NCBI GenBank assembly: GCA_017609205.1
Contig: JAFCEL010000001.1
Location: 180,001 to 212,000, forward strand
DNA from: Candidatus Saccharimonadota bacterium
Lineage (GTDB): Archaea > Nanobdellota > Nanobdellia > Pacearchaeales > GW2011-AR1
DNA: 32,000 nucleotides
Reading direction: 5' to 3'
The notes below the pieces were generated by a model, which saw only the letters and a list, made by a program, of their open reading frames with translations, searched no databases and was not told the DNA's origin. Position 1 is the stretch's first letter. Each line of letters starts with the position of its first letter. Positions 118-21,276 of the stretch are shown here, piece after piece. A program made the translations under genes and the position numbers.

Positions 118-201
118 GTATTATTTACTACTCACTACTATTTAAATTTTATGACTATGGATATTTTAAATAAATTTTGAATATGTTGAGGGGGTGTGAA
201 T

Positions 202-1044
202 ATGGTAAGATTTATCAATAAAAATTTAAAGTCTCATTCTTATACCTCAAGTGAACCTTTAAATTCTTTAATGGACAACATTGTTCAATCCGAAATAGCT
301 AAATTATTGGCATTTCACTTTAGAGATTTTGGGAAGAAATCTAGTACTGATCTTACTCATTTGCTTCAGAAAACAACAATACAATTAGGATTATCTTCTC
401 CAAGGGAAGTGGATTTCTGGTTTGGATCTGGGCAAATAAGCGTTAAAGAGTTTTTTTTGTTAATTGAACTTATCCTTGAGACTTATGTAGAAAGCAATAA
501 AAGATGGTTAGAAGAATCATACATTCTAGATTTTGTAAATGATATTAATGATTTTTTTCTTATCCATAAAGTTCCCTTATCAATTAGATATTTTTCAAAT
601 AAAAAAGAATTTTATGTTGAAAAAATAATTTCTCCTGAAATTAGTAAAGAAATCAAAAAAACTTTAGAAGATTTCTCAAAGGAGGAAAAAGTGTTTGAGG
701 ATTTTAAGGAGGCTATTAAAAAATATAGTTCTGGAAATTATGAAGGTTCTATTGAAAAATGTTGTGTTTCAATTGAAGATTATCTCTGCATTCTTTTAGA
801 GAAAAAAACATGCTCTAGTATTGACAAGTATTATAAAGATATTGCTAAGAGGTTAAAAATTCCTGAAGATTTAAATGATAGATTCACAAATATCATACAT
901 TACATCCATAAACACAGATCTCATCAAAACCATGGATCTATTGAGAAGAAGGTAATTGAAGATATTGAATTGATTAATGAAATTATTATTGGATTTACAA
1001 TGACTATTTTAAATTATTTGAAAAAGAAAAATGAAAAAAGTTAA
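202..1044 (+). CDS. AbiJ-like abortive-infection protein with C-terminal HEPN (Abi_C-type) domain
   Basis: The C-terminal ~110 aa match the Abi_C pattern (FEDFKEAIKKYSSGNYEGSIEKCCVSIEDYL ... IHKHRSHQNHGS). An R-x4-H HEPN motif sits at R241/H246 (nt 916-933). ATG 202 lies 7 nt after GAGGGGG; the ORF track starts at GTG 196. The gene overlaps the next ORF by 14 nt. Confidence 0.6.
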   Translation: MVRFINKNLKSHSYTSSEPLNSLMDNIVQSEIAKLLAFHFRDFGKKSSTDLTHLLQKTTIQLGLSSPREVDFWFGSGQISVKEFFLLIELILETYVESNKRWLEESYILDFVNDINDFFLIHKVPLSIRYFSNKKEFYVEKIISPEISKEIKKTLEDFSKEEKVFEDFKEAIKKYSSGNYEGSIEKCCVSIEDYLCILLEKKTCSSIDKYYKDIAKRLKIPEDLNDRFTNIIHYIHKHRSHQNHGSIEKKVIEDIELINEIIIGFTMTILNYLKKKNEKS

Positions 1045-1282
1045 AGAGAAAACTGAAGATCTGCCAGATTGGATTAAATTAATCTTTAAATGGGTTTTTC
1101 TTTTAGCAGGAGTTCCTAGTCTCTCCTATGTTTTTTTATGGGCCTCTGTTCAAAGTGCTTTTGAAGCTGCAACAACAGGTTGGCAAATTTTTCTGGGATT
1201 TAGTCTTTTTAGTATTTTTCTGGGATATATTTATTTTTCAATTAAATATTTAGTCGAAGAAACTATTGGTTATTTTAAATGA
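1031..1282 (+). CDS. small 2-TM membrane protein, unknown function
   Basis: 83 aa with two hydrophobic helices (WVFLLAGVPSLSYVFLWA and IFLGFSLFSIFLGYIYF). It overlaps the upstream HEPN gene and overlaps hsdS by ATGA. Confidence 0.5.
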   Translation: MKKVKEKTEDLPDWIKLIFKWVFLLAGVPSLSYVFLWASVQSAFEAATTGWQIFLGFSLFSIFLGYIYFSIKYLVEETIGYFK

Positions 1283-2724
1283 AAATTAATTTTATTCCTC
1301 TAACTTTTATTAAATCTCAAGAAGATTTGAATTTCCAAATAAGAAATACCTTAATAATGAAGAAGATTTTAGAAAAGTTTAGTGATGAAAAAGAATTAAA
1401 AGAACTTCTAAAAAAAACACAATATGGATTTACTACTTCAGCAAAAAAGGAAGGGAGATATAAATTTCTTAGAATTACTGATTTAAAAAATGGAAAAGTT
1501 GATTGGGAGAATGTTCCTTCTTGTGATGGAGATTGTAATAATTATTTATTAAAAGGAGGGGATATTGTGATAGCAAGAACAGGAAATAATAAAAGTTTTC
1601 TTATTAAAGATGTTCCAAATAATGCTATTTTTGCAAGTTATCTTATAAAATTAGAAGTTAATAGAAAAGTTTTACTTCCCGAATATCTATATATGTTTTT
1701 GAATAGTTATTTGTTTTGGAGCCAAGTTTTAAAAATGCAAACAGGGACTACTCTTTCTAATGTTAATGGAGAAAAGTTGAAAAAATTAAGGATTCCTTAT
1801 TGTCCAATTAAAGAGCAAGAAAGGATAGTTAAAGGAAATTTTGATAAAAACCTTAAAGAAGTAATAAAAAAGGTTGAAGATTTTTTAATTAGTAAAGAAA
1901 AATTGGCATTAAATTCTCAAAAAGACCATGAACTCTTAAAGAAACTCAAACAATCAATCCTCCAAGAAGCTGTTCAGGGAAAACTCGTTCCGCAAGATCC
2001 AAAAGATGAACCTGCATCAGAGTTGTTGAAAAAAATTAAGAGAGAAAAAGAAAAGCTAATTAAAGAAGGGAAAATCAAAAAACAAAAGCCCTTGCCACAA
2101 ATTGAAGAGGATGAGATTCCTTATAAATTGCCTAAGGGTTGGGTTTGGGTGAGGTTGGGGGATATCACAGAGGTTTATACAGGAAATAGCATATCTAAGA
2201 GTATTAAAGAAACAAAATATACGAATCTACCCGAAGGTTATAATTATATTTCTACTAAAGATGTTAAATTTAATGGGTTGGTTAATTATGAGACTGGAGT
2301 AAAAATTCCTTTTAATGAAAAGAAATTTAAAATTGCTAAATCAAATTCTACTTTAATTTGTATTGAAGGGGGAAGTGCTGGAAAGAAAATTGCCAAAATT
2401 AATGAGGATGTGTGTTTTGGGAATAAATTATGTTCTATTAGTTCTATAGTTACTAATTGTGATTATACTCTTTTTTACATTAATAGCCCTGTTTTTAAAT
2501 CGTTTTTCTTTGTAAAAATGAATGGTATTATTGGAGGCGTGGGAGTTAATAAAATAAAATCTCTTCTGTTTCCACTCCCTCCCCTAGCCGAGCAAAAACG
2601 AATTGTTGCCAAAGTTGATGAATTAATGAAATATTGTGATAAGTTGGAAGAGAAAATAAAACAAAATAAAGAATATTCTGAAAAGTTGATGGGGGCTGTT
2701 TTGAGAGAGAGTTTTGAAAAATGA
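1279..2724 (+). CDS. hsdS: type I restriction-modification specificity subunit HsdS
   Basis: Two target-recognition domains are separated by a long central coiled-coil region (LKQSILQEAVQGKLVPQDPKDEPASELLKKIKREKEKL). Conserved HsdS motifs are present: IPYCPIKEQERIV and LPPLAEQKRIVAKVDELM. The second TRD starts with LPKGWVWVRLGDI. Confidence 0.9.
   Translation: MKINFIPLTFIKSQEDLNFQIRNTLIMKKILEKFSDEKELKELLKKTQYGFTTSAKKEGRYKFLRITDLKNGKVDWENVPSCDGDCNNYLLKGGDIVIARTGNNKSFLIKDVPNNAIFASYLIKLEVNRKVLLPEYLYMFLNSYLFWSQVLKMQTGTTLSNVNGEKLKKLRIPYCPIKEQERIVKGNFDKNLKEVIKKVEDFLISKEKLALNSQKDHELLKKLKQSILQEAVQGKLVPQDPKDEPASELLKKIKREKEKLIKEGKIKKQKPLPQIEEDEIPYKLPKGWVWVRLGDITEVYTGNSISKSIKETKYTNLPEGYNYISTKDVKFNGLVNYETGVKIPFNEKKFKIAKSNSTLICIEGGSAGKKIAKINEDVCFGNKLCSISSIVTNCDYTLFYINSPVFKSFFFVKMNGIIGGVGVNKIKSLLFPLPPLAEQKRIVAKVDELMKYCDKLEEKIKQNKEYSEKLMGAVLRESFEK
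2664..2724 (+). repeat. direct repeat copy 1 (authentic hsdS 3' end)
   Basis: About 61 nt encoding NKEYSEKLMGAVLRESFEK*. It is repeated imperfectly at 3269-3328. Confidence 0.85.
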
Positions 2725-3248
2725 GTGGTGATCTTTTAAAATACCTTCCGGGAATAATTATCTCATTTTCTACAATTTCATTGGCAATTTTAATTCCTAT
2801 TTTAGAAAGACGAAATAAAATCTTAAGAAAAAAAGTTTTAGATTGTGAAGAGAAAATAAGCAGAGAGAAATTGAATCTTATTCTCGATTCTATCCAAAAA
2901 TCAAAAGTTGCATCAATACATGGGACCCAAGTTATTTTAGAAGAATTAAAGTCTAGTAAAAAAAAGATTTTTGATAAGGCTATGAAAAATTTATCGGTGA
3001 ATAATCTTAATGCCCTATTGAAAGGCAAAGTTAATTCAAAAGAGCTATACTCTAAAACTGATGAAAAATTAATAGAATTAATCAAGCAAAACTTTAGGAT
3101 TAATATAGAAAAAGTGAACAAAGAAGTTAAACAGCAAAAAATGTTAAAGGAAAGCCTCTCAAAATTAGAAAGGAATAAGTTTATTATTTACATATCTCTG
3201 ATGATCATTCAATCTTTTGGATTAATATTAAATCAATTCTTAATCTAA
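2721..3248 (+). CDS. TM - coiled-coil - TM membrane protein, unknown function
   Basis: 175 aa. N-terminal TM (LPGIIISFSTISLAILIPIL), Lys/Glu-rich central coiled-coil, and C-terminal TM (FIIYISLMIIQSFGLILNQFLI). ATGA overlap with the hsdS stop. The gene is flanked by the hsdS 3'-end direct repeat. Confidence 0.5.
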   Translation: MSGDLLKYLPGIIISFSTISLAILIPILERRNKILRKKVLDCEEKISREKLNLILDSIQKSKVASIHGTQVILEELKSSKKKIFDKAMKNLSVNNLNALLKGKVNSKELYSKTDEKLIELIKQNFRINIEKVNKEVKQQKMLKESLSKLERNKFIIYISLMIIQSFGLILNQFLI

Positions 3249-3329: not shown

Positions 3330-3713
3330 TTACCATCTTCCAATACTTCTTTGTAAACCCCGAGAATAAGATCTTACAGATTTCAAAGGAACTCCAAATA
3401 AAAATAAGACTCCTGCAATAATTAATGCAATAATAATAAATCCTTCTGGATTTTCATTTAGTAAGTTTATGAAAAAATTTCCTGATTTTTTTTCTGCATT
3501 TGATTTTGGATCTAAATTATTTATATCTTTAGATAGTTGGTAGGAGTTATTTAATACCTCTATTTTATCTTGCTCTGAAAGTTCGTTAACGATTTCATCT
3601 TTAGCTTGTTCTTTTATAGGATTAATTACTGACAAAATAGCTAGAAGAATCATTACTCCAAATACTAATCCTACTAATTTATTATATTTGTAAAAAGTAA
3701 ATGCTGGAGGCAT
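3330..3713 (-). CDS. TM - linker - TM membrane protein, unknown function (last gene of the 4-gene operon)
   Basis: N-terminal TM (LVGLVFGVMILLAILSV) and C-terminal TM (FIIIALIIAGVLFLFGV). The ORF track starts at 3731, but ATG 3713 lies 1 nt after the stop of the upstream Zn-ribbon ORF and ~8 nt after GGAGGAGG. Confidence 0.5.
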   Translation of the reverse strand: MPPAFTFYKYNKLVGLVFGVMILLAILSVINPIKEQAKDEIVNELSEQDKIEVLNNSYQLSKDINNLDPKSNAEKKSGNFFINLLNENPEGFIIIALIIAGVLFLFGVPLKSVRSYSRGLQRSIGRW

Positions 3714-3714
3714 T

Positions 3715-3873
3715 CTAATTTCCTCCTCCACTAGTCATTTCACAAGCACAATGTTGTATTTCATTACATCCAGAGAATCTACAACCTTTCTCTTTTGGTC
3801 TTCCGCATTTCCAACAGTGTCTTGTATGCTGTTTACTTATCTTTTTATGTCTTCTAAATGTTCTTTGATCCAT
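3715..3873 (-). CDS. small Cys-rich zinc-ribbon-like protein (52 aa)
   Basis: Hand translation gives MDQRTFRRHKKISKQHTRHCWKCGRPKEKGCRFSGCNEIQHCACEMTSGGGN*. It has a CxxC pair plus further Cys/His and a basic N-terminus. It fills the gap between two coupled genes exactly (1-nt spacers on both sides). It is below the ORF-track length cutoff. Confidence 0.4.
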   Translation of the reverse strand: MDQRTFRRHKKISKQHTRHCWKCGRPKEKGCRFSGCNEIQHCACEMTSGGGN

Positions 3874-3874
3874 T

Positions 3875-4114
3875 TTAAAACCTAGGTAAGTTATCTAAAT
3901 TATTTGTCCAGTATCCATCGGCGTGGGTTCTTATCCATTTTTCTTTATAGATGCCTATAGGAATCTCTGAGTTTCCCTCTTTTACATAAAATGAATCAAC
4001 CTTTTTATTTATTCTTTCTACAACCTGAAAAGTTGTTAAAATTAAGTCATAAGTTTTAACTGCAATTATATTGTCATTCTTATCTTTTCTTACATGTGTA
4101 ATATATCGTTTCAT
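3875..4114 (-). CDS. DUF3892 domain protein
   Basis: 79 aa matching the DUF3892 pattern along its full length (YITHVRKD..NIIAVKT....F.VVERINK...FYV......IPIGIYKEKWIRTHADGYWTNNLDNLPRF). Confidence 0.7.
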   Translation of the reverse strand: MKRYITHVRKDKNDNIIAVKTYDLILTTFQVVERINKKVDSFYVKEGNSEIPIGIYKEKWIRTHADGYWTNNLDNLPRF

Positions 4115-4401
4115 CTTCCTTTGTTTCTGTATCCTTTTTTTCTCATCCTTTTATTTATTGAACCATCTTTATTCCACATTTCTACAATAGCACGACCATA
4201 TCTATCTATTGCAATTTTCTTGACTTTTACAAACCCCTTAGTTCTTCCAGTCATTCCTGCGGCTGTTCTTGTTGCAGTAGACCCTCCAAATTGATGTTTC
4301 TCATGTGCTCTTACTCCTTTTAGTCTGAATCTAGTTCCATCAGTAAAAACTCCACTATCTCCATCATCCCATTCTCTTATTCTTTTTCTTTGGATTGCCA
4401 T
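4111..4401 (-). CDS. minimal SNase-like (thermonuclease OB-fold) protein with altered active site
   Basis: 96 aa, colinear with the staphylococcal nuclease core: DDGDS (DGDT), FRLKGVRAHE (FRLLLVDTPE), IDRYGRAIVEMW..DGS (TDKYGRGLAYIY.DGK). The Ca-binding Asp of VDTPE is replaced by Arg. ATGA overlap with the DUF3892 gene. Confidence 0.5.
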   Translation of the reverse strand: MAIQRKRIREWDDGDSGVFTDGTRFRLKGVRAHEKHQFGGSTATRTAAGMTGRTKGFVKVKKIAIDRYGRAIVEMWNKDGSINKRMRKKGYRNKGR

Positions 4402-4430
4402 TTTTATCTATCTTTTTTAATTCTTTTGTG

Positions 4431-4438
4431 TTTATAAA
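4431..4438 (-). promoter_or_regulatory. putative archaeal TATA box for the minus-strand 4-gene operon
   Basis: Palindromic TTTATAAA lies 30 nt upstream of ATG 4401, implying a very short leader. Confidence 0.3.
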
Positions 4439-4477
4439 TCTTTTGGAAAGTGGAATTAATATTTCCACAAGATAAAA

Positions 4478-4485
4478 TTTATAAA
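4478..4485 (+). promoter_or_regulatory. putative archaeal TATA box for the Csa3-like regulator gene
   Basis: An identical palindromic TTTATAAA ends 22 nt upstream of ATG 4507. This fits a leaderless transcript and argues against the GTG 4450 start. Confidence 0.3.
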
Positions 4486-4506
4486 GACATTACACCCATT
4501 TTAAAT

Positions 4507-5139
4507 ATGAAAAAAGAGAGGGTATTAATTAGTAGTATCTTTAGTTCAAATACAATAAAACAATTAGTTCTTAGAACATCTCCTTCCTTATTGATCTTAG
4601 TTGTAGAAAAAAATTTATTTAAATCTAAGAATGAGGATGAACTGAAAAAGATAAATGCTATAAAACAAATTCAACAAAGTTTAAGCGATATAATAAAAAT
4701 AGAAATCCTAGAGACAAAATCTCTTTATGATTTATACGAAATAACAAAAGATGTTGTTAATCAGATTGATAAACTAAAAAACCAGGATATAATTTTGAAC
4801 ATTAGTGAAGGGAGAAAAACTCTTGCTTTTGGGATGTATTTTGCTGGGCAACTTAGAAAGGAAAAAGTATCTTCAGTATATTACTTAATCAAGGAAGATA
4901 ACACCCTCCTTAAAATGCCTTTGCCAGATTTCAATATCAATAAAGTCCAAAAAAACATACTCCTTATGATAAAAAATACAAAAAAAGATATAAAGGAGTT
5001 AAGAACTAAAATAGAAAAAGAGGGGAAATCTAAAAGTCTTTTTTATAAATATATAAAGCAACTAGAAGAAGAAGGTTATATTGAAATGCAAGAGAATAAA
5101 TTAGAGATAACAAATATGGGAAAAATGGTTTTGCTTTAA
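4507..5139 (+). CDS. Csa3-like CARF (Rossmann-like) plus C-terminal winged-HTH transcriptional regulator
   Basis: The architecture and motif order resemble Csa3. There is an N-terminal strand (RVLISSIFSS), a second strand (SLLILVVEK), a ligand-pocket-like motif NISEGRKTLAFGMYFAG (cf. DLTMGMR in Csa3), and a C-terminal wHTH (KNILLMIKNTKKDIKELRTKI......YKYIKQLEEEGYIE). The ORF track starts at GTG 4450. Confidence 0.5.
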   Translation: MKKERVLISSIFSSNTIKQLVLRTSPSLLILVVEKNLFKSKNEDELKKINAIKQIQQSLSDIIKIEILETKSLYDLYEITKDVVNQIDKLKNQDIILNISEGRKTLAFGMYFAGQLRKEKVSSVYYLIKEDNTLLKMPLPDFNINKVQKNILLMIKNTKKDIKELRTKIEKEGKSKSLFYKYIKQLEEEGYIEMQENKLEITNMGKMVLL

Positions 5140-5155
5140 TTTTTACATAATCTCC

Positions 5156-7522
5156 TCAAACTCTCCTATTTTTATCTCCATTAACTCGATACAACCTCTC
5201 CTCAATCTCCATCACCATTTTCTTATAACCCAACTTCCCTCCAAAGAGTTTCATAATTTCAAGAGGTCTTCCAAATCTTCTCAAAGGTTCAACTCTTAAT
5301 ACTTCAGCATCTTCGAGATTTTCTATTCCTTCATCTGCGTATTTGTCTAAAAGAGCACTTATTACTTGTCTTGCTTTTTCTCCATATTTATCAAAGTAAG
5401 AATCTTTTTTTACTTTTTTTGCTCTTTCACTTCTTGTTTTTGGTTTTTTTCCATATGCAATATGCAAAATAAGGTCAAAAGGATCATACTCTTTTCCATT
5501 AGGAATTGTCTCTCTTAATGCATCAAAGTTAATCCCTTTTTGATATAGCTCTTCAATTAAAACTCTTTTTTGATCAAATATATTCCATTTCTCAATAAAA
5601 TCATTTAAAGTTCTATAATCTTTTTTTATCCCTTTTTTAGTGTAATCAATAAGTTTTTCTGTGATTAATTTCCCTGAAGGATCAAGATATTGTTCTGATT
5701 GGTTAATAACCGAAACATCTGCTTCTTTAACATAAAACTTTCTTGGTTTTTCCTCCTCATCATAAATATTAATATCTTGCTTTTTCATTAATTCAAGAAC
5801 TTCTTTTTCTTCAATCTCTTCTGGTTTTATTTCTTCATCTTGTTTAAAAGTTTTTAACTGGACAGGCTCTCCATCAAAATCAGGGTCTGCAAAATGGTTT
5901 GTAACATTTCTAAAGTCCATAATTGTAAAAAAGAATTTATTGTAATCCGGATTTATCCTTGTCCCTCTTCCAATTATTTGTTTAAATTCTGTCATAGAAT
6001 TAATAGGAGAATCCAAAACAATTAATTTACAGGTTTGAGCATCTATACCTGTAGTCATTAGTTTTGAAGTGGTTGCTATAACAGGGTATTTCATTGAAGG
6101 ATCCATAAAATTACCTAATTGGTTTTTTCCTATTTTATCATCTCCTGTTATTCTCATAACATATTTTTTATTTTTAGAATATAAATCAGAATTTTCATTA
6201 ATTAAGGCTCTTTTCATTCTCTCAGCATGCTCCACATCAACACAAAAAACAATTGTCTTGCTCATCCTATCTGTATTTTTCAAATATTCAGTTATCTTCT
6301 TTGCGACAATCTTTGTTCTTTCATCAATAACAAGAGTTCTATCAAATTCTCTATTAGTATAAACATAATCAGGAATTTCATTTCCATATTTGTCTTTTTC
6401 TCCTTTACTTGGTCTGTATCCATGAACATCTTTGTTAATTGCAACTTTGATAACACGATAAGGTGCAAGAAATCCGTCCTCGATTCCTTGTTTTAATGAG
6501 TAAGTATAAATGGGCTTCCCAAAATAATCTATGTTTGAGATATCATTAGTTTCTTTTGGAGTTGCAGTCATACCAATCTGAACAGCATCAGAGAAATATT
6601 CTAAAACTCTTCTCCATGCAGAATTAGCTCTTGCACTTCCTCTATGACACTCGTCAACAATAATCAAGTCAAAAAAGTTTCTGGAAAATTGTTTAAAAAT
6701 ATCTTTTTCTTCTTCATTTCCAGAAATCCCCTGATAGAGTGCCATATATACTTCATAAGACTTATCAGCTTTTCTATTTTTTATTTTGGTCATCACCTTC
6801 TTTAGAGGTTTAAGATCTTTATTCATTGGATCATCTACTAAAATATTTCTATCTGCAAGATACAAAATCCGTGGGTTACTTCTTTTTGGTTTCCATTTAT
6901 TTCTTAATCTCCACATGATTTGGAAAGCAGTGTAAGTTTTTCCTGTTCCTGTTGCCATAACTAACAGAATTCTCCTTTGTCCTTTGGCAATCGCTTCAAT
7001 GACTCTATTTATTGCAATAGTTTGATAATATCTTGGCTCTTTCCAATCTGCTTCAAAATAATAATCAGTCGTTATTAAATCTTCTATCTTTTCTGTTATC
7101 CCCTTGTATTTTTTATATCTCTCCCATAAATCTTGAGGAGAAGGAAATTGTTCCAGTGTTAATTCTTCATTTTTTCCTGAGATTAAATCCTGAAAAATAA
7201 AACCATCACCATTTGAACTAAATGCAAAAGGTATATCTAAAATTTCAGCATAATCTACTGCTTGCTGCAATCCATCCCCCAACGCATGTTTATTATCTTT
7301 TGCTTCAACAACTGCAATAGGTAAATTATTTTTGTAATAAAGAATATAATCTGCTTTTTTAGGAATTCCTCTTTTTATTATTTTTCCATAAACATAAATT
7401 CTCCCATCTGTAAAGTATTTTTCCTCGCGAATTTGCTTATCTCTATCCCATCCTGATTTTTCAAGACTAGGAAGGATAAATTTAGTCCGAATATCTGCTT
7501 CAGTTAGTTGTTTTTTATTCAT
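5156..7522 (-). CDS. hsdR: type I restriction enzyme R subunit HsdR (EcoEI_R_C-type C-terminus)
   Basis: N-terminal PD-(D/E)xK nuclease (ADYILYY...IAVVEAKD). SF2 helicase motifs are present (MATGTGKT, VDECHRG, MTATP, QIIGRGTR). The C-terminal domain is typical of EcoEI-type R subunits (FDLILHIAYG...EPLRRFGRPLEIMKLFGG). Confidence 0.92.
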   Translation of the reverse strand: MNKKQLTEADIRTKFILPSLEKSGWDRDKQIREEKYFTDGRIYVYGKIIKRGIPKKADYILYYKNNLPIAVVEAKDNKHALGDGLQQAVDYAEILDIPFAFSSNGDGFIFQDLISGKNEELTLEQFPSPQDLWERYKKYKGITEKIEDLITTDYYFEADWKEPRYYQTIAINRVIEAIAKGQRRILLVMATGTGKTYTAFQIMWRLRNKWKPKRSNPRILYLADRNILVDDPMNKDLKPLKKVMTKIKNRKADKSYEVYMALYQGISGNEEEKDIFKQFSRNFFDLIIVDECHRGSARANSAWRRVLEYFSDAVQIGMTATPKETNDISNIDYFGKPIYTYSLKQGIEDGFLAPYRVIKVAINKDVHGYRPSKGEKDKYGNEIPDYVYTNREFDRTLVIDERTKIVAKKITEYLKNTDRMSKTIVFCVDVEHAERMKRALINENSDLYSKNKKYVMRITGDDKIGKNQLGNFMDPSMKYPVIATTSKLMTTGIDAQTCKLIVLDSPINSMTEFKQIIGRGTRINPDYNKFFFTIMDFRNVTNHFADPDFDGEPVQLKTFKQDEEIKPEEIEEKEVLELMKKQDINIYDEEEKPRKFYVKEADVSVINQSEQYLDPSGKLITEKLIDYTKKGIKKDYRTLNDFIEKWNIFDQKRVLIEELYQKGINFDALRETIPNGKEYDPFDLILHIAYGKKPKTRSERAKKVKKDSYFDKYGEKARQVISALLDKYADEGIENLEDAEVLRVEPLRRFGRPLEIMKLFGGKLGYKKMVMEIEERLYRVNGDKNRRV

Positions 7523-19097: not shown

Positions 19098-20144
19098 TTA
19101 ACCCCTCTTATAAACTTTATTTGCAACAATTCTCATCTTAGTTTCAAAATCTTTGAGAAGGGAAGCATTCATTCTTGCTCCGACAGATCTCTCATGCCCT
19201 CCTCCAATAGCATTCTCAAAATCCTTGATAACCTCCTTAAAAATTTCAAGAGCATTCTTTCCTCTGATGGAAATATTTGCATAAGAGTCTTTAACATAAG
19301 CAATAACCACTAGTTTATTAGGAAATAAATAACCCATTTCATCTGCAATTGAAGAGCTGATACTCATATCTCCTGAATAACAGAAGAATAAAACTTTATC
19401 ATTAATTCTCTCGCATTCAATTGCTCTCTTCAATAATCTTTTATACTTCTTATTAATATAATTAAATCTCTTATGCATAGTATAATTCTTAGAGTTTTCT
19501 TCGAGAACTTCATAGGGGGTTTTGACAGAAACAAGGAAATTTATAAGTTTAATAATATTAGTTGTCCTATCTTTCAGAGCAAAATTAAAGATTTCTGTAA
19601 TCTTCCCTATTCGTGACCTATACCTTATATCAAAAGCATCTGAATGTTTACAAGATAAATCAGGATATCTTTTTTCAAACTCATCATAGAAATCAGGAAT
19701 AAACCTATCAGCGATGCATCCGATAACTGCAATCCATAAATCCTCTTTTCTTTCTGTTGCTTTATAACAAAGATAAGTCGTAGGCAATGAAAGATTTTCA
19801 ATAAGAGGGTTATAATAATTAACAAAATCAGGTATCTTAGATAATTCAAAATCGTGATGGTCTATCCAGACAACAGGAAGATTTATTTCCTGAACTCTCT
19901 CAAAAAAACCTTCAGAAACAAGAGCTTTATCAAGGATAAAGATGTAATCAGGATTAAATTCTCTTACTTTTCCAAAATAACTTTTTGTCAATTCTCCTTT
20001 TACACAAACTCCTTTTCCAACACCTAATGCTCTCCTTAATAAAAGAAAACTGCATAGTCCATCAGCATCATTATCAAAAAAGAAAACAGGATTTTGCGCC
20101 TTATTAAGACTTTCCTGAATATCTTTTATCTGATTGGATAGCAT
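19098..20144 (-). CDS. DHH/DHHA1 family phosphoesterase (RecJ/NrnA-like)
   Basis: DHH motifs FFFDNDADGLCS, VWIDHHD and DHHA1 GGGHERSVGA. It lies immediately downstream of disA on the same strand. Confidence 0.75.
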   Translation of the reverse strand: MLSNQIKDIQESLNKAQNPVFFFDNDADGLCSFLLLRRALGVGKGVCVKGELTKSYFGKVREFNPDYIFILDKALVSEGFFERVQEINLPVVWIDHHDFELSKIPDFVNYYNPLIENLSLPTTYLCYKATERKEDLWIAVIGCIADRFIPDFYDEFEKRYPDLSCKHSDAFDIRYRSRIGKITEIFNFALKDRTTNIIKLINFLVSVKTPYEVLEENSKNYTMHKRFNYINKKYKRLLKRAIECERINDKVLFFCYSGDMSISSSIADEMGYLFPNKLVVIAYVKDSYANISIRGKNALEIFKEVIKDFENAIGGGHERSVGARMNASLLKDFETKMRIVANKVYKRG

Positions 20145-20178: not shown

Positions 20179-21276
20179 CTAAATTATCTTCCCTTCCATA
20201 ATCTTCTCCTTTAAACCATCAAGCTGTGTTTTAAGGGAACTTGCAGAATCTTTGTCTTCTCTAATTTTAAAGAGAGATTCTTTATCTATATCTAAAATAT
20301 TTCCTATATTCTCAAAACTATTTATTAGTTTAGATGTCTCTTCTTCAGAAAGATTTAATTTGCTTAAAATTCTTTTACCTTTAGAAGAAATTATATTATT
20401 TTTTGCATCTCCAAAAAGAACCCTCTGAAGATTAGAAAGCTCAAGAAGAGAATCAAAATTCAGGTCTTTAAGAGAATTTTTAATTTTAGTAGAACTATTA
20501 GGGAAGTAATCCTCAATCAGAAGATTTTTTTCTTTTGAAAGATTTCTAGTTAATTCCTTTAGTCTCATGCTTACAATTATCCCTTCTTTGCCTAATTCTA
20601 TGAGATATCTTTTTATGATATCTGAAGTTCTTTGAATTATCTCCATCTTCTGGATAACATTGCAAACATCCATAGAAGTTGCAAGATTATTTATCTCAAG
20701 AATATTTAGATTCGTAAATAATTCATCTAAGATATCTTTCTGCTTCTCAATAATTTGAAGCGTCTCTGTGGCTCTTCTTAAAATCTCTGAACTATCTTCA
20801 AGCACATATCTTGCATTTCCATAATAAACAGTAATCTTATTCTTTCTCTTTGAAACAGCAATAATAATTGTTTTTATCTGTTTAGAAGTCCTCTCAGCTG
20901 CCTTATGTCTTGTTCCGGTCTCCCTTGTCTTGATATGAACATCAGGTACTAGAAGAGTATTTGCATACAGAATTTTTTTCATATCTTCAGATAGAATAAT
21001 TGCACCATCCATTTTTGCAAGCTCAACTAATTTTTGAGGACTAAATTTTGTATTAACCCTAAAACCCCCGTCTACAATACTTAAAAGACTTCCCTTATCA
21101 ATAGCAATTAACGCCCCAATTCGTGCTCTTAAAATATCATCCAGAGCATTCCTAATTGAAGTTCCAGGGGAAAATAGTTTCAGTACGTCTAAAAAATCTT
21201 TCTCTCTTTCAACATTTCTAGTAGATACCCTCCTATCCCCTCTCCCAATAAATTTTCCAGTTTCGTCTTTTTTCAT
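20179..21276 (-). CDS. disA: diadenylate cyclase, DisA-type (DAC domain, DisA linker, HhH-like tail)
   Basis: Colinear with bacterial DisA: FSPGTSIRNALDDILRA, ELAKMDGAIILSEDMKKILYANTLLVPD, ETGTRHKAAERTSKQ, followed by a linker-domain match. Confidence 0.88.
   Translation of the reverse strand: MKKDETGKFIGRGDRRVSTRNVEREKDFLDVLKLFSPGTSIRNALDDILRARIGALIAIDKGSLLSIVDGGFRVNTKFSPQKLVELAKMDGAIILSEDMKKILYANTLLVPDVHIKTRETGTRHKAAERTSKQIKTIIIAVSKRKNKITVYYGNARYVLEDSSEILRRATETLQIIEKQKDILDELFTNLNILEINNLATSMDVCNVIQKMEIIQRTSDIIKRYLIELGKEGIIVSMRLKELTRNLSKEKNLLIEDYFPNSSTKIKNSLKDLNFDSLLELSNLQRVLFGDAKNNIISSKGKRILSKLNLSEEETSKLINSFENIGNILDIDKESLFKIREDKDSASSLKTQLDGLKEKIMEGKII

Follow-up and report, generated by a model that had tools for sequence, protein, structure and literature searches.

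Organisation of the locus

The element described here occupies positions 3330–5139 of a 32,000-nucleotide stretch of DNA, referred to throughout as the window, which corresponds to positions 180,001 to 212,000 of contig JAFCEL010000001.1 (GenBank assembly GCA_017609205.1), deposited as Candidatus Saccharimonadota bacterium and placed by GTDB among the archaeal Pacearchaeales. It consists of a four-gene operon on the minus strand (3330–4401) and a regulator gene on the plus strand (4507–5139), which face each other across a 105-bp gap (4402–4506) inside a type I restriction–modification (R-M) locus. From the divergent centre outwards, the operon encodes a 96-aa protein with the fold of staphylococcal nuclease (SNase), here called mini-SNase (4111–4401), a 79-aa DUF3892 protein (3875–4114), a 52-aa Zn-ribbon or zinc-knuckle protein (3715–3873), and a small membrane protein of 127 aa with two predicted transmembrane (TM) segments, the 2-TM protein (3330–3713). 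It represents a modular cassette that has been exchanged horizontally and is known chiefly from DPANN archaea.

This layout of a divergent regulator and four-gene operon had been proposed in a first-pass annotation made from the sequence alone, which saw in it a possible sensor/effector conflict system; the layout is confirmed, and the interpretation as a whole is partly supported. Both the listing of open reading frames (ORFs) and direct reading show the four minus-strand genes packed head to tail, coupled through an ATGA overlap and then two 1-nt spacers, as had been described. On either side lie genes of the R-M system: hsdS, for the specificity subunit, at 1279–2724 on the plus strand (PF01420, 6e-29), and hsdR, for the restriction subunit, at 5156–7522 on the minus strand (ResIII, 3e-41; EcoEI_R_C, 7e-30), the latter convergent with the regulator gene. 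The hsdM gene lies just beyond the left window edge. The location between hsdS and hsdR is correct; an additional 175-aa gene (2721–3248) intervenes to give the order hsdS, 175-aa gene, cassette, hsdR. Scans of the 32-kb window for cas genes, Cas10 and CRISPR-like arrays were negative, in agreement with the first reading, and no cas genes were seen in the related loci examined either.

The gap at 4402–4506 reads as a divergent promoter with a candidate operator. Two TATA-like TTTATAAA boxes, at 4431–4438 and 4478–4485, flank an inverted repeat, ATCTTTTGGAAA (4438–4449) and TTTCCACAAGAT (4462–4473), whose 12-nt arms are 92% complementary; the palindromy of the region was reached in only one of 200 dinucleotide shuffles. 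Each box lies ~21–29 bp from its own start codon, a spacing that suits leaderless or short-leader archaeal transcripts. The 13-mer GTTTATAAATCTT is shared with a second locus, L086 (loci from other contigs are numbered in this way), in which it is found on both sides of the divergent promoter of a regulator homologue with 45% identity.

The CARF–winged-helix regulator

The regulator ORF spans 4450–5139 on the plus strand and opens at a GTG codon (4450), but the most likely start is the ATG at 4507, as profile alignments all begin at residue 23. This gives a protein of 210 aa, where 211 had been stated. On the evidence of four independent profile sets and a predicted structure, it is a protein of the Csa3/HFX_2341 kind, with an N-terminal CARF domain and, at the C terminus, a winged helix-turn-helix (wHTH). 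The PADLOC CARF3 profile matches it at full length (7e-40); the NCBIfam model TIGR01884 (cas_HTH/Csa3) gives 62.8 bits against a curated cutoff of 60.2, and HFX_2341_N (PF19810) reaches 41.6 bits where 30 are required, with Csa3_N slightly below its threshold (26.9 against 27 bits). The NISEGRKTLAFG motif is found in the regulator. A search of the PDB with the single sequence returned noise only, and a family profile was needed: built from 22 regulator homologues, it matches the CARF domains of Can2 (8bao, 1e-8), Card1, Csx1 and Crn1, and its positions 130–187 match the winged helices of PH1932, AdcR and ArsR. Weak Pfam matches of the winged helix itself are to HTH_24, HTH_45 and DUF6293_C.

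The AlphaFold2 (AF2) model (pLDDT 90) folds residues 146–201 into three helices followed by a β hairpin. When this model was searched with Foldseek, all 50 listed matches were CARF proteins or CARF-like structural-genomics entries, headed by the CARF–wHTH ring nucleases Sso1393 and Sis0811 (E 3e-10, TMq 0.63), with Csa3 next. The Csa3-like assignment of the first-pass annotation is therefore borne out by profiles and predicted structure, none of which placed the protein in a non-CARF regulator family.

The general CARF ligand loop, between β4 and α4, has the form (D/N)-x-(S/T)-x3-(R/K) (PMC8844856). In the regulator this loop reads N-I-S-E-G-R-K, and across the 22 homologues K104 is invariant and R103 nearly so. 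HFX_2341, namesake of the best Pfam family for this protein, has been shown experimentally to be a transcriptional repressor, and is present also in species that have no CRISPR (PMC11434293).

The mini-SNase

The first operon gene (4111–4401, minus strand) encodes a strongly basic protein (pI 11.4) with no signal peptide, hydrophobic leader or TM segment. It passes the PF00565 gathering cutoff (25.5 against 21 bits), and its AF2 model (pLDDT 88) superposes on SNase structures with a TMq of 0.82 and a root-mean-square deviation of 1.9 Å. In the family alignment the DGD motif, equivalent to D19/D21 of SNase, is retained, R26 (=R35) and E34 (=E43) are invariant, and R70 (=R87) is nearly so. The D21 equivalent is thus kept, but that of D40 is R, Q, K or N in 28 of 28 aligned members, and the full SNase Ca2+ site (D21, D40, T41) is not found. 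The chain stops at about SNase residue 106, the structural alignment spanning chain residues 19–102, and the C-terminal helices that bear Y113 and Y115 are missing.

The description of this protein as “degenerate” should therefore be revised. Its fold and the equivalents of R35, E43, R87 and D21 are conserved, and its losses are confined to the counterpart of D40 and the helices of the C terminus; the protein is truncated rather than degenerate. Compared with staphylococcal nuclease itself, it shares the OB core but is shorter (~95 residues), has no secretion signal and carries a non-acidic residue in place of D40. PHROGs matches it to a generic “endonuclease”, and neither PADLOC nor NCBIfam holds a family for it. 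At 95 residues, mini-SNase is among the smallest apparently intact SNase folds, which, together with the loss of one canonical metal ligand, makes it of interest for enzymology.

Partner proteins of the operon

The DUF3892 gene (3875–4114, minus strand) begins with an ATG that overlaps the mini-SNase stop codon as ATGA. Its product matches the full PF13031 model (8e-13; 49.1 bits against a cutoff of 22.3) and belongs to a tight subfamily of 79-aa proteins with 66–89% identity. PHROGs places it in a family of unknown function, and a sequence search of the PDB gave no match. Binding to RNA or ribosomes has been suggested for proteins with DUF3892, which have also been tied to defence operons with divergent HTH regulators (bioRxiv 10.1101/2022.04.27.489752; 10.1101/2025.01.14.632903).

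After a 1-nt spacer follows the 52-aa Zn-ribbon or zinc-knuckle protein (3715–3873, minus strand), which has no match in Pfam. Nine Cys/His residues, H16, H19, C20, C23, C31, C36, H41, C42 and C44, are invariant among its four known homologues, those of L026, L027 and L090 included. These homologues always lie directly behind DUF3892 or behind mini-SNase.

The last gene (3330–3713, minus strand) follows after another 1-nt spacer. The ATG at 3713 is taken as its start, the alternative being a GTG at 3731, up to which the mechanical ORF runs; the JGI call on the identical contig is likewise 127 aa. A hydropathy scan predicts hydrophobic stretches at about residues 9–35 and 87–115, separated by a polar middle and followed by a basic tail. 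The protein is an orphan, with homologues found nowhere outside the identical contig; non-homologous small TM proteins take its operon position in L026, L027 and L090. PADLOC contains no families for the DUF3892 and Zn-ribbon proteins, and gives only a chance-level match (E 0.34) for the 2-TM protein; NCBIfam likewise has no match to any of these three. Downstream of the operon there is an oligo-U tract only, and no terminator hairpin (z −1.2).

Recurrence across genomes

Starting from the nuclease, the mini-SNase family comprises 68 clusters at 90% identity, 53–83% identical to the query, or three clusters at 50% identity below 1e-30, surrounded by a wider halo of ~90-aa SNases. Scans of genomes and metagenomes gave 82 mini-SNase loci, corresponding to 64 distinct genes after de-duplication, 52 of which have an upstream flank long enough to judge. 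In all, the nuclease cassette is seen in about 60 further uncultured genomes, and most of its hosts belong to the Woese-, Pace-, Nano- and Nanohalarchaeota. Methanosarcinales and some bacteria (Anaerolineales, Bacteroidetes and Mcinerneyibacteriota) carry a small number of copies with ~70% identity, which argues for horizontal transfer of the gene.

A divergent wHTH regulator belonging to one of three recognised families lies immediately upstream in 44 of the 52 genes that can be judged. Most of these are members of a ~340-aa family termed F1 (30), followed by Csa3-like (11) and TrmB-like (3) proteins, and the regulator is therefore usually not Csa3-like. The five genes of the window do not form one fixed unit, as had been supposed; the conserved anchor is the mini-nuclease and its divergent wHTH regulator. 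On the downstream side, 600 nt or more of sequence is available for 51 loci; 37 of these have a tightly coupled gene, and in 28 a predicted TM protein is encoded among the first three coupled genes. The 4-nt overlaps and 1-nt spacers of the window recur among these operons, in which the downstream families vary, and include YdjM-like hydrolases, lipoprotein-like proteins, miniproteins with two to four TM segments, and DUF3892, amongst others.

The window's own order is among those that recur. SNase, DUF3892 and Zn-ribbon follow one another at 65–82% identity in independent contigs, the series SNase, DUF3892, Zn-ribbon and small TM protein being found in at least three, with L026 and L090/L091 among them, and sub-sets are seen in L027 (SNase, Zn-ribbon, TM) and L023 (SNase, DUF3892). 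Co-occurrence outside this genome thus holds for the first three genes with a small TM protein in fourth place, but not for the orphan 2-TM protein. The cassettes of L023, L026, L027 and L090/L091 all use an F1 rather than a Csa3-like regulator.

F1, the commonest regulator of mini-nuclease cassettes (for example L005:6548–7576, L022:4770–5834 and L090:3503–4561, with ~27 more loci), has an N-terminal ArsR-like winged helix with partial matches to DUF7342. Searches identify this winged helix only, the C-terminal domain of ~280 residues having no Pfam or PDB match. F1 genes are usually paired with a PIN gene in convergent orientation or with a PIN-like/DUF8169 gene in the same direction.

Other genes are also found around the anchor. 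Between regulator and mini-SNase, ORFs of ~58 aa (in the regions L011:7768–7974, L061:5752–5991 and L066:2914–3165) share a GNKNT-x-EVH...C-Q...GFDNC-x-WC pattern reminiscent of Ada-type zinc-binding motifs, and in L031 an HNH-like ORF stands in their place. In the bacterial copies from Anaerolineales and Mcinerneyibacteriota (L003:7995–10115 and L004:64–2179), mini-SNase is followed by a 426-aa protein, HD-domain-like by eye, and then by a protein of the SocA/Panacea family; a divergent wHTH of the three recognised families was not detected in these two loci.

Module exchange and genomic neighbourhood

Reciprocal searches from the other genes show the same parts in different combinations. The closest homologues of the Csa3-like regulator face operons that have no SNase: in L084 the operon encodes a 95-aa PD-(D/E)xK-like protein and YdjM, in another it encodes a 180-aa wHTH-like protein, YdjM and two small TM proteins, and a further homologue faces a CAP-domain protein. 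For the DUF3892 protein, four contexts of close homologues were inspected, and every one is an operon divergent from F1. DUF3892 is found with mini-SNase and Zn-ribbon, and then TM proteins, in L090/L091; with an 83-aa divergent SNase and a Cas4-like nuclease in L092/L093; with an 83-aa SNase and a TM protein, adjoining an Eco47II R-M pair, in L094/L095; and with a 95-aa PD-(D/E)xK-like protein and a 51-aa Gly-rich TM peptide in L096–L098.

Two of these loci call for separate mention. The 45%-identical Csa3-like homologue of L086 (3933–6621) is divergent from genes for a 295-aa protein, a ThsB-like TIR protein, an 8xMP membrane protein and a 52-aa peptide, and this operon directly adjoins two DNA methyltransferases. 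The 95-aa protein (L084:1647–1934 and L096:4711–4998) has weak AHJR/Hjc (PD-(D/E)xK) matches below cutoff, and replaces mini-SNase as first gene both under a Csa3-like regulator, with YdjM (L084), and under F1, with DUF3892 (L096).

Exchange is also seen at orthologous sites. In L022, where HsdR and mini-SNase are 88% and 82% identical to those of the window, F1 and a PIN-like gene are found instead of the Csa3-like gene, and two unrelated small genes stand behind the SNase. L005, with an HsdR of 63% identity, presents a third gene combination. The R-M site behaves as a hot spot with interchangeable modules, and the regulator swap between orthologous loci amounts to a clean natural experiment in modular defence-island evolution.

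Type I R-M genes lie within 6–8 kb in 17 of the 64 loci, in differing arrangements, and nearby in 8 of the 15 loci whose flanks reach 4 kb or more on each side. A tally of Pfam families in 150 neighbour proteins of the long loci is headed by N6_Mtase, Eco57I, Methylase_S, UPF0020 and HsdM_N, followed by C5 methylase, RadC, DUF2779, TraG/HerA ATPases, nucleotidyltransferase and PIN. The neighbourhoods, rich in R-M, PIN and RadC genes, are of an accessory or conflict type rather than housekeeping, in line with the context originally suggested.

Proposed function and alternative explanations

From this context it may be inferred, with a probability of roughly one in two, that the cassette is a transcriptionally gated nuclease/membrane effector of defence islands. 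A dimeric regulator would bind the palindrome between the TATA boxes (4438–4473) and repress both promoters, until the conserved pocket of the CARF domain (the NISEGRK loop) takes up a nucleotide-type ligand and repression is lifted. The basic, cytoplasmic mini-SNase would then cut nucleic acid, with DUF3892 and the Zn-ribbon as putative adaptors that target or restrain it, and the membrane protein may contribute a second, envelope-directed activity or serve as an anchor. Sited as it is inside type I R-M loci, the cassette could act as an inducible second-line effector, PrrC-like in position.

Several observations weigh against this proposal. The top structural matches of the regulator model are ring nucleases as much as transcription factors. 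Motif 1, the adenine-stacking motif by which Csa3 binds cyclic tetra-adenylate (cA4) in β1–α1, Phi-G-F-(N/D)-x-zeta-F (PMC8844856), is not kept in the regulator: the site reads L-I-S-S-I-F-S-S-N-T, with a family consensus of LISTIF/Y, and only an aromatic residue is retained. Within the 32 kb, nothing that would supply cyclic oligoadenylate can be seen. For the other Csa3-type intergenic regions, most inverted repeats do not rise above chance, only the window and L086 exceeding shuffles (one of 200 each), and a family-wide operator therefore cannot be claimed. As to the effector, the missing D40 Ca2+ ligand and C-terminal nucleotide-binding helices mean that catalysis by mini-SNase is not assured, and a transcriptional response would be slow for abortive infection. 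The DUF3892 cassette of L096–L098 sits beside a ribosomal-protein operon. Two further results are neutral: no PADLOC system model matches the four operon proteins, the regulator alone matching, to generic CARF models, and no mini-SNase relatives were found on viral contigs in the scanned collection; neither is contrary to defence, and neither lends it independent support.

A more specific possibility, considered unlikely, is that the locus represents CRISPR-independent CARF signalling in DPANN archaea, in which the regulator would respond to a nucleotide signal that does not come from Cas10, and would turn on an unrecognised class of minimal effectors. These would be the 95-residue SNase or PD-(D/E)xK nucleases with their DUF3892, Zn-ribbon and membrane partners, and the same effectors would be coupled to other sensors through the F1 and TrmB-like regulators. 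Candidate signals include cyclic di-AMP (c-di-AMP) from a DisA cyclase encoded 15 kb away, nuclease products, or a signal tied to restriction.

The position of the cassette between hsdS and hsdR, which is that of prrC in the prr locus, admits a different explanation, in which the mini-nuclease serves the type I enzyme itself, either as a partner that finishes DNA cut once by HsdR in RecBCD-less archaea, or as a PrrC-like backup released on R-M inhibition, the regulator otherwise silencing it. In 17 of 64 loci, type I R-M genes do stand no more than a few kb away, variously arranged, and the SNase has been kept beside related HsdR proteins (63–88% identical) with all else swapped. Most long-flank loci, however, show other R-M types or no R-M gene, some cassettes adjoin housekeeping genes, and the proteins have neither a domain able to contact HsdMSR nor the ABC-ATPase/anticodon-nuclease architecture of PrrC, so that such a role does not seem a likely one.

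DPANN archaea cannot make nucleotides, and the cassette could be a means of salvage, its regulated nuclease and membrane proteins breaking down nucleic acid under nutrient shortage. Consistent with this, the hosts are mostly Woese-, Pace- and Nanoarchaeota, many of the downstream genes encode membrane or lipoprotein-like proteins, and HFX_2341, the characterised relative of the regulator, represses chiefly nutrient-transport genes (PMC11434293). Mini-SNase, however, has no signal peptide or TM segment, its patchy, cross-domain distribution at ~70% identity is typical of accessory genes, and its neighbours are not genes for transport or salvage but R-M, PIN, RadC and TraG genes; with partners such as DUF3892, TIR and Cas4-like proteins suggesting conflict, scavenging appears quite unlikely.

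An addiction or toxin–antitoxin (TA)-like module of a mobile element, in which a nuclease or membrane toxin is neutralised by a small protein or by the regulator, would stabilise the R-M island rather than fight viruses. Small, tightly coupled genes, the shuffling of modules at orthologous sites, the PIN, SocA/Panacea and MazE/PemK genes of the same neighbourhoods, and TraG/HerA-type ATPases and RadC, which suggest integrated elements, would all fit such a module. It is nevertheless improbable, given that there is no fixed toxin–antidote pair, the gene behind the SNase differing between loci, and that the regulators bear sensor-type domains, superfluous in plain autoregulated TA loci. Least probable of all is that there is no system here, only unrelated small genes gathered in a variable island beside a general regulator or ring nuclease unconnected to the operon: the 2-TM gene is indeed an orphan, the closest homologues of the regulator face other operons, and ring nucleases are its best structural matches, but a divergent wHTH stands immediately upstream of 44 of 52 mini-SNase genes, the 4-nt overlaps and 1-nt spacers recur, and the SNase–DUF3892–Zn-ribbon order is found at 65–82% identity in independent contigs.

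Comparison with known systems

The closest relatives of the regulator in terms of architecture are the Csa3/HFX_2341 factors, represented by the Csa3 protein Sso1445 and Haloferax HFX_2341. Shared features are the N-terminal Rossmann-like CARF domain and C-terminal winged helix, the passing of both the TIGR01884 and PF19810 cutoffs, and the N-x-S-x3-K loop; the predicted divergent promoter with a palindrome is a further likeness, as is the occurrence of HFX_2341 homologues without CRISPR. The window regulator differs from Csa3 in having no cas gene or array nearby and no motif 1, and its identity to solved Csa3 is ~16%. The operon that it faces encodes a nuclease, DUF3892, Zn-ribbon and TM protein, rather than cas or repair genes. 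With ring nucleases of the Crn1 type (Sso1393, Sis0811), its best structural matches, the regulator shares the two-domain architecture; the head-to-head arrangement with the operon that it would regulate points to a transcription factor. In a type III CRISPR cyclic oligoadenylate module, a Cas10 cyclase and array would be expected, and neither is found within the 32 kb.

PrrC and RloC offer a parallel for the nuclease, as a nuclease gene inserted between hsdS and hsdR and plausibly a latent second line behind restriction. Control of the cassette would, however, be transcriptional, through a sensor regulator, and not by masking within the R-M complex, and no cassette protein has a Pfam or NCBIfam match to an ABC-ATPase or anticodon-nuclease domain. 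The CapH/CapP and BrxR/CapW operons share the arrangement of a regulator divergent from a variable, defence-type operon, with DUF3892 among the cargo. They differ in that the regulators of the cassette are CARF–wHTH, F1 or TrmB-like proteins, with no metallopeptidase or WYL domain detected, its hosts are archaeal, and its first gene is constantly a mini-nuclease.

In the literature searched, no description of the cassette was found, nor of CARF/Csa3 with SNase, nor of a DPANN thermonuclease. The earlier statement that the locus belongs to no named system stands, since no PADLOC model matches the four operon proteins, and the cassette looks like an undescribed modular element of defence islands, with a function suggested by its context. 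In DPANN archaea, whose genomes are tiny, few defence systems have been recognised and experimental genetics scarcely exists. If the proposal is true, a recurrent, shuffled cassette in R-M islands would bring to archaeal immunity a component not yet catalogued, and would provide a concrete case of a CARF regulator away from CRISPR–Cas, bearing on what “orphan” CARF proteins sense.

Other features of the window

The remaining window is archaeal housekeeping, including genes for GatA/D/E, AspRS, ProRS, AlaRS, LeuRS, TFE-alpha and deoxyhypusine synthase, and Rfam finds one tRNA as the only RNA gene. The DisA-type diadenylate cyclase (20179–21276, minus strand; DAC, 4.6e-25; DisA-linker, 2e-31) is the sole cyclic-nucleotide synthase in the window, and is a conceivable, purely candidate source of a CARF ligand. 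The gene that adjoins it (19098–20144, minus strand) has a weak match to the DHH family, at 25.5 bits under the cutoff of 28.1.

The R-M locus itself holds further genes. The 175-aa gene between hsdS and the cassette (plus strand) overlaps the hsdS stop codon by 4 nt and is apparently co-transcribed with hsdS; its product is hydrophobic at both ends and charged in the centre, and has no family match. Between the off-window hsdM and hsdS (196–1282, plus strand), a 282-aa protein and an overlapping 83-aa protein are encoded, with predicted TM segments; the former has a weak precomputed Abi_C match on the identical contig, and the pair would be a second cargo insertion in this R-M locus.

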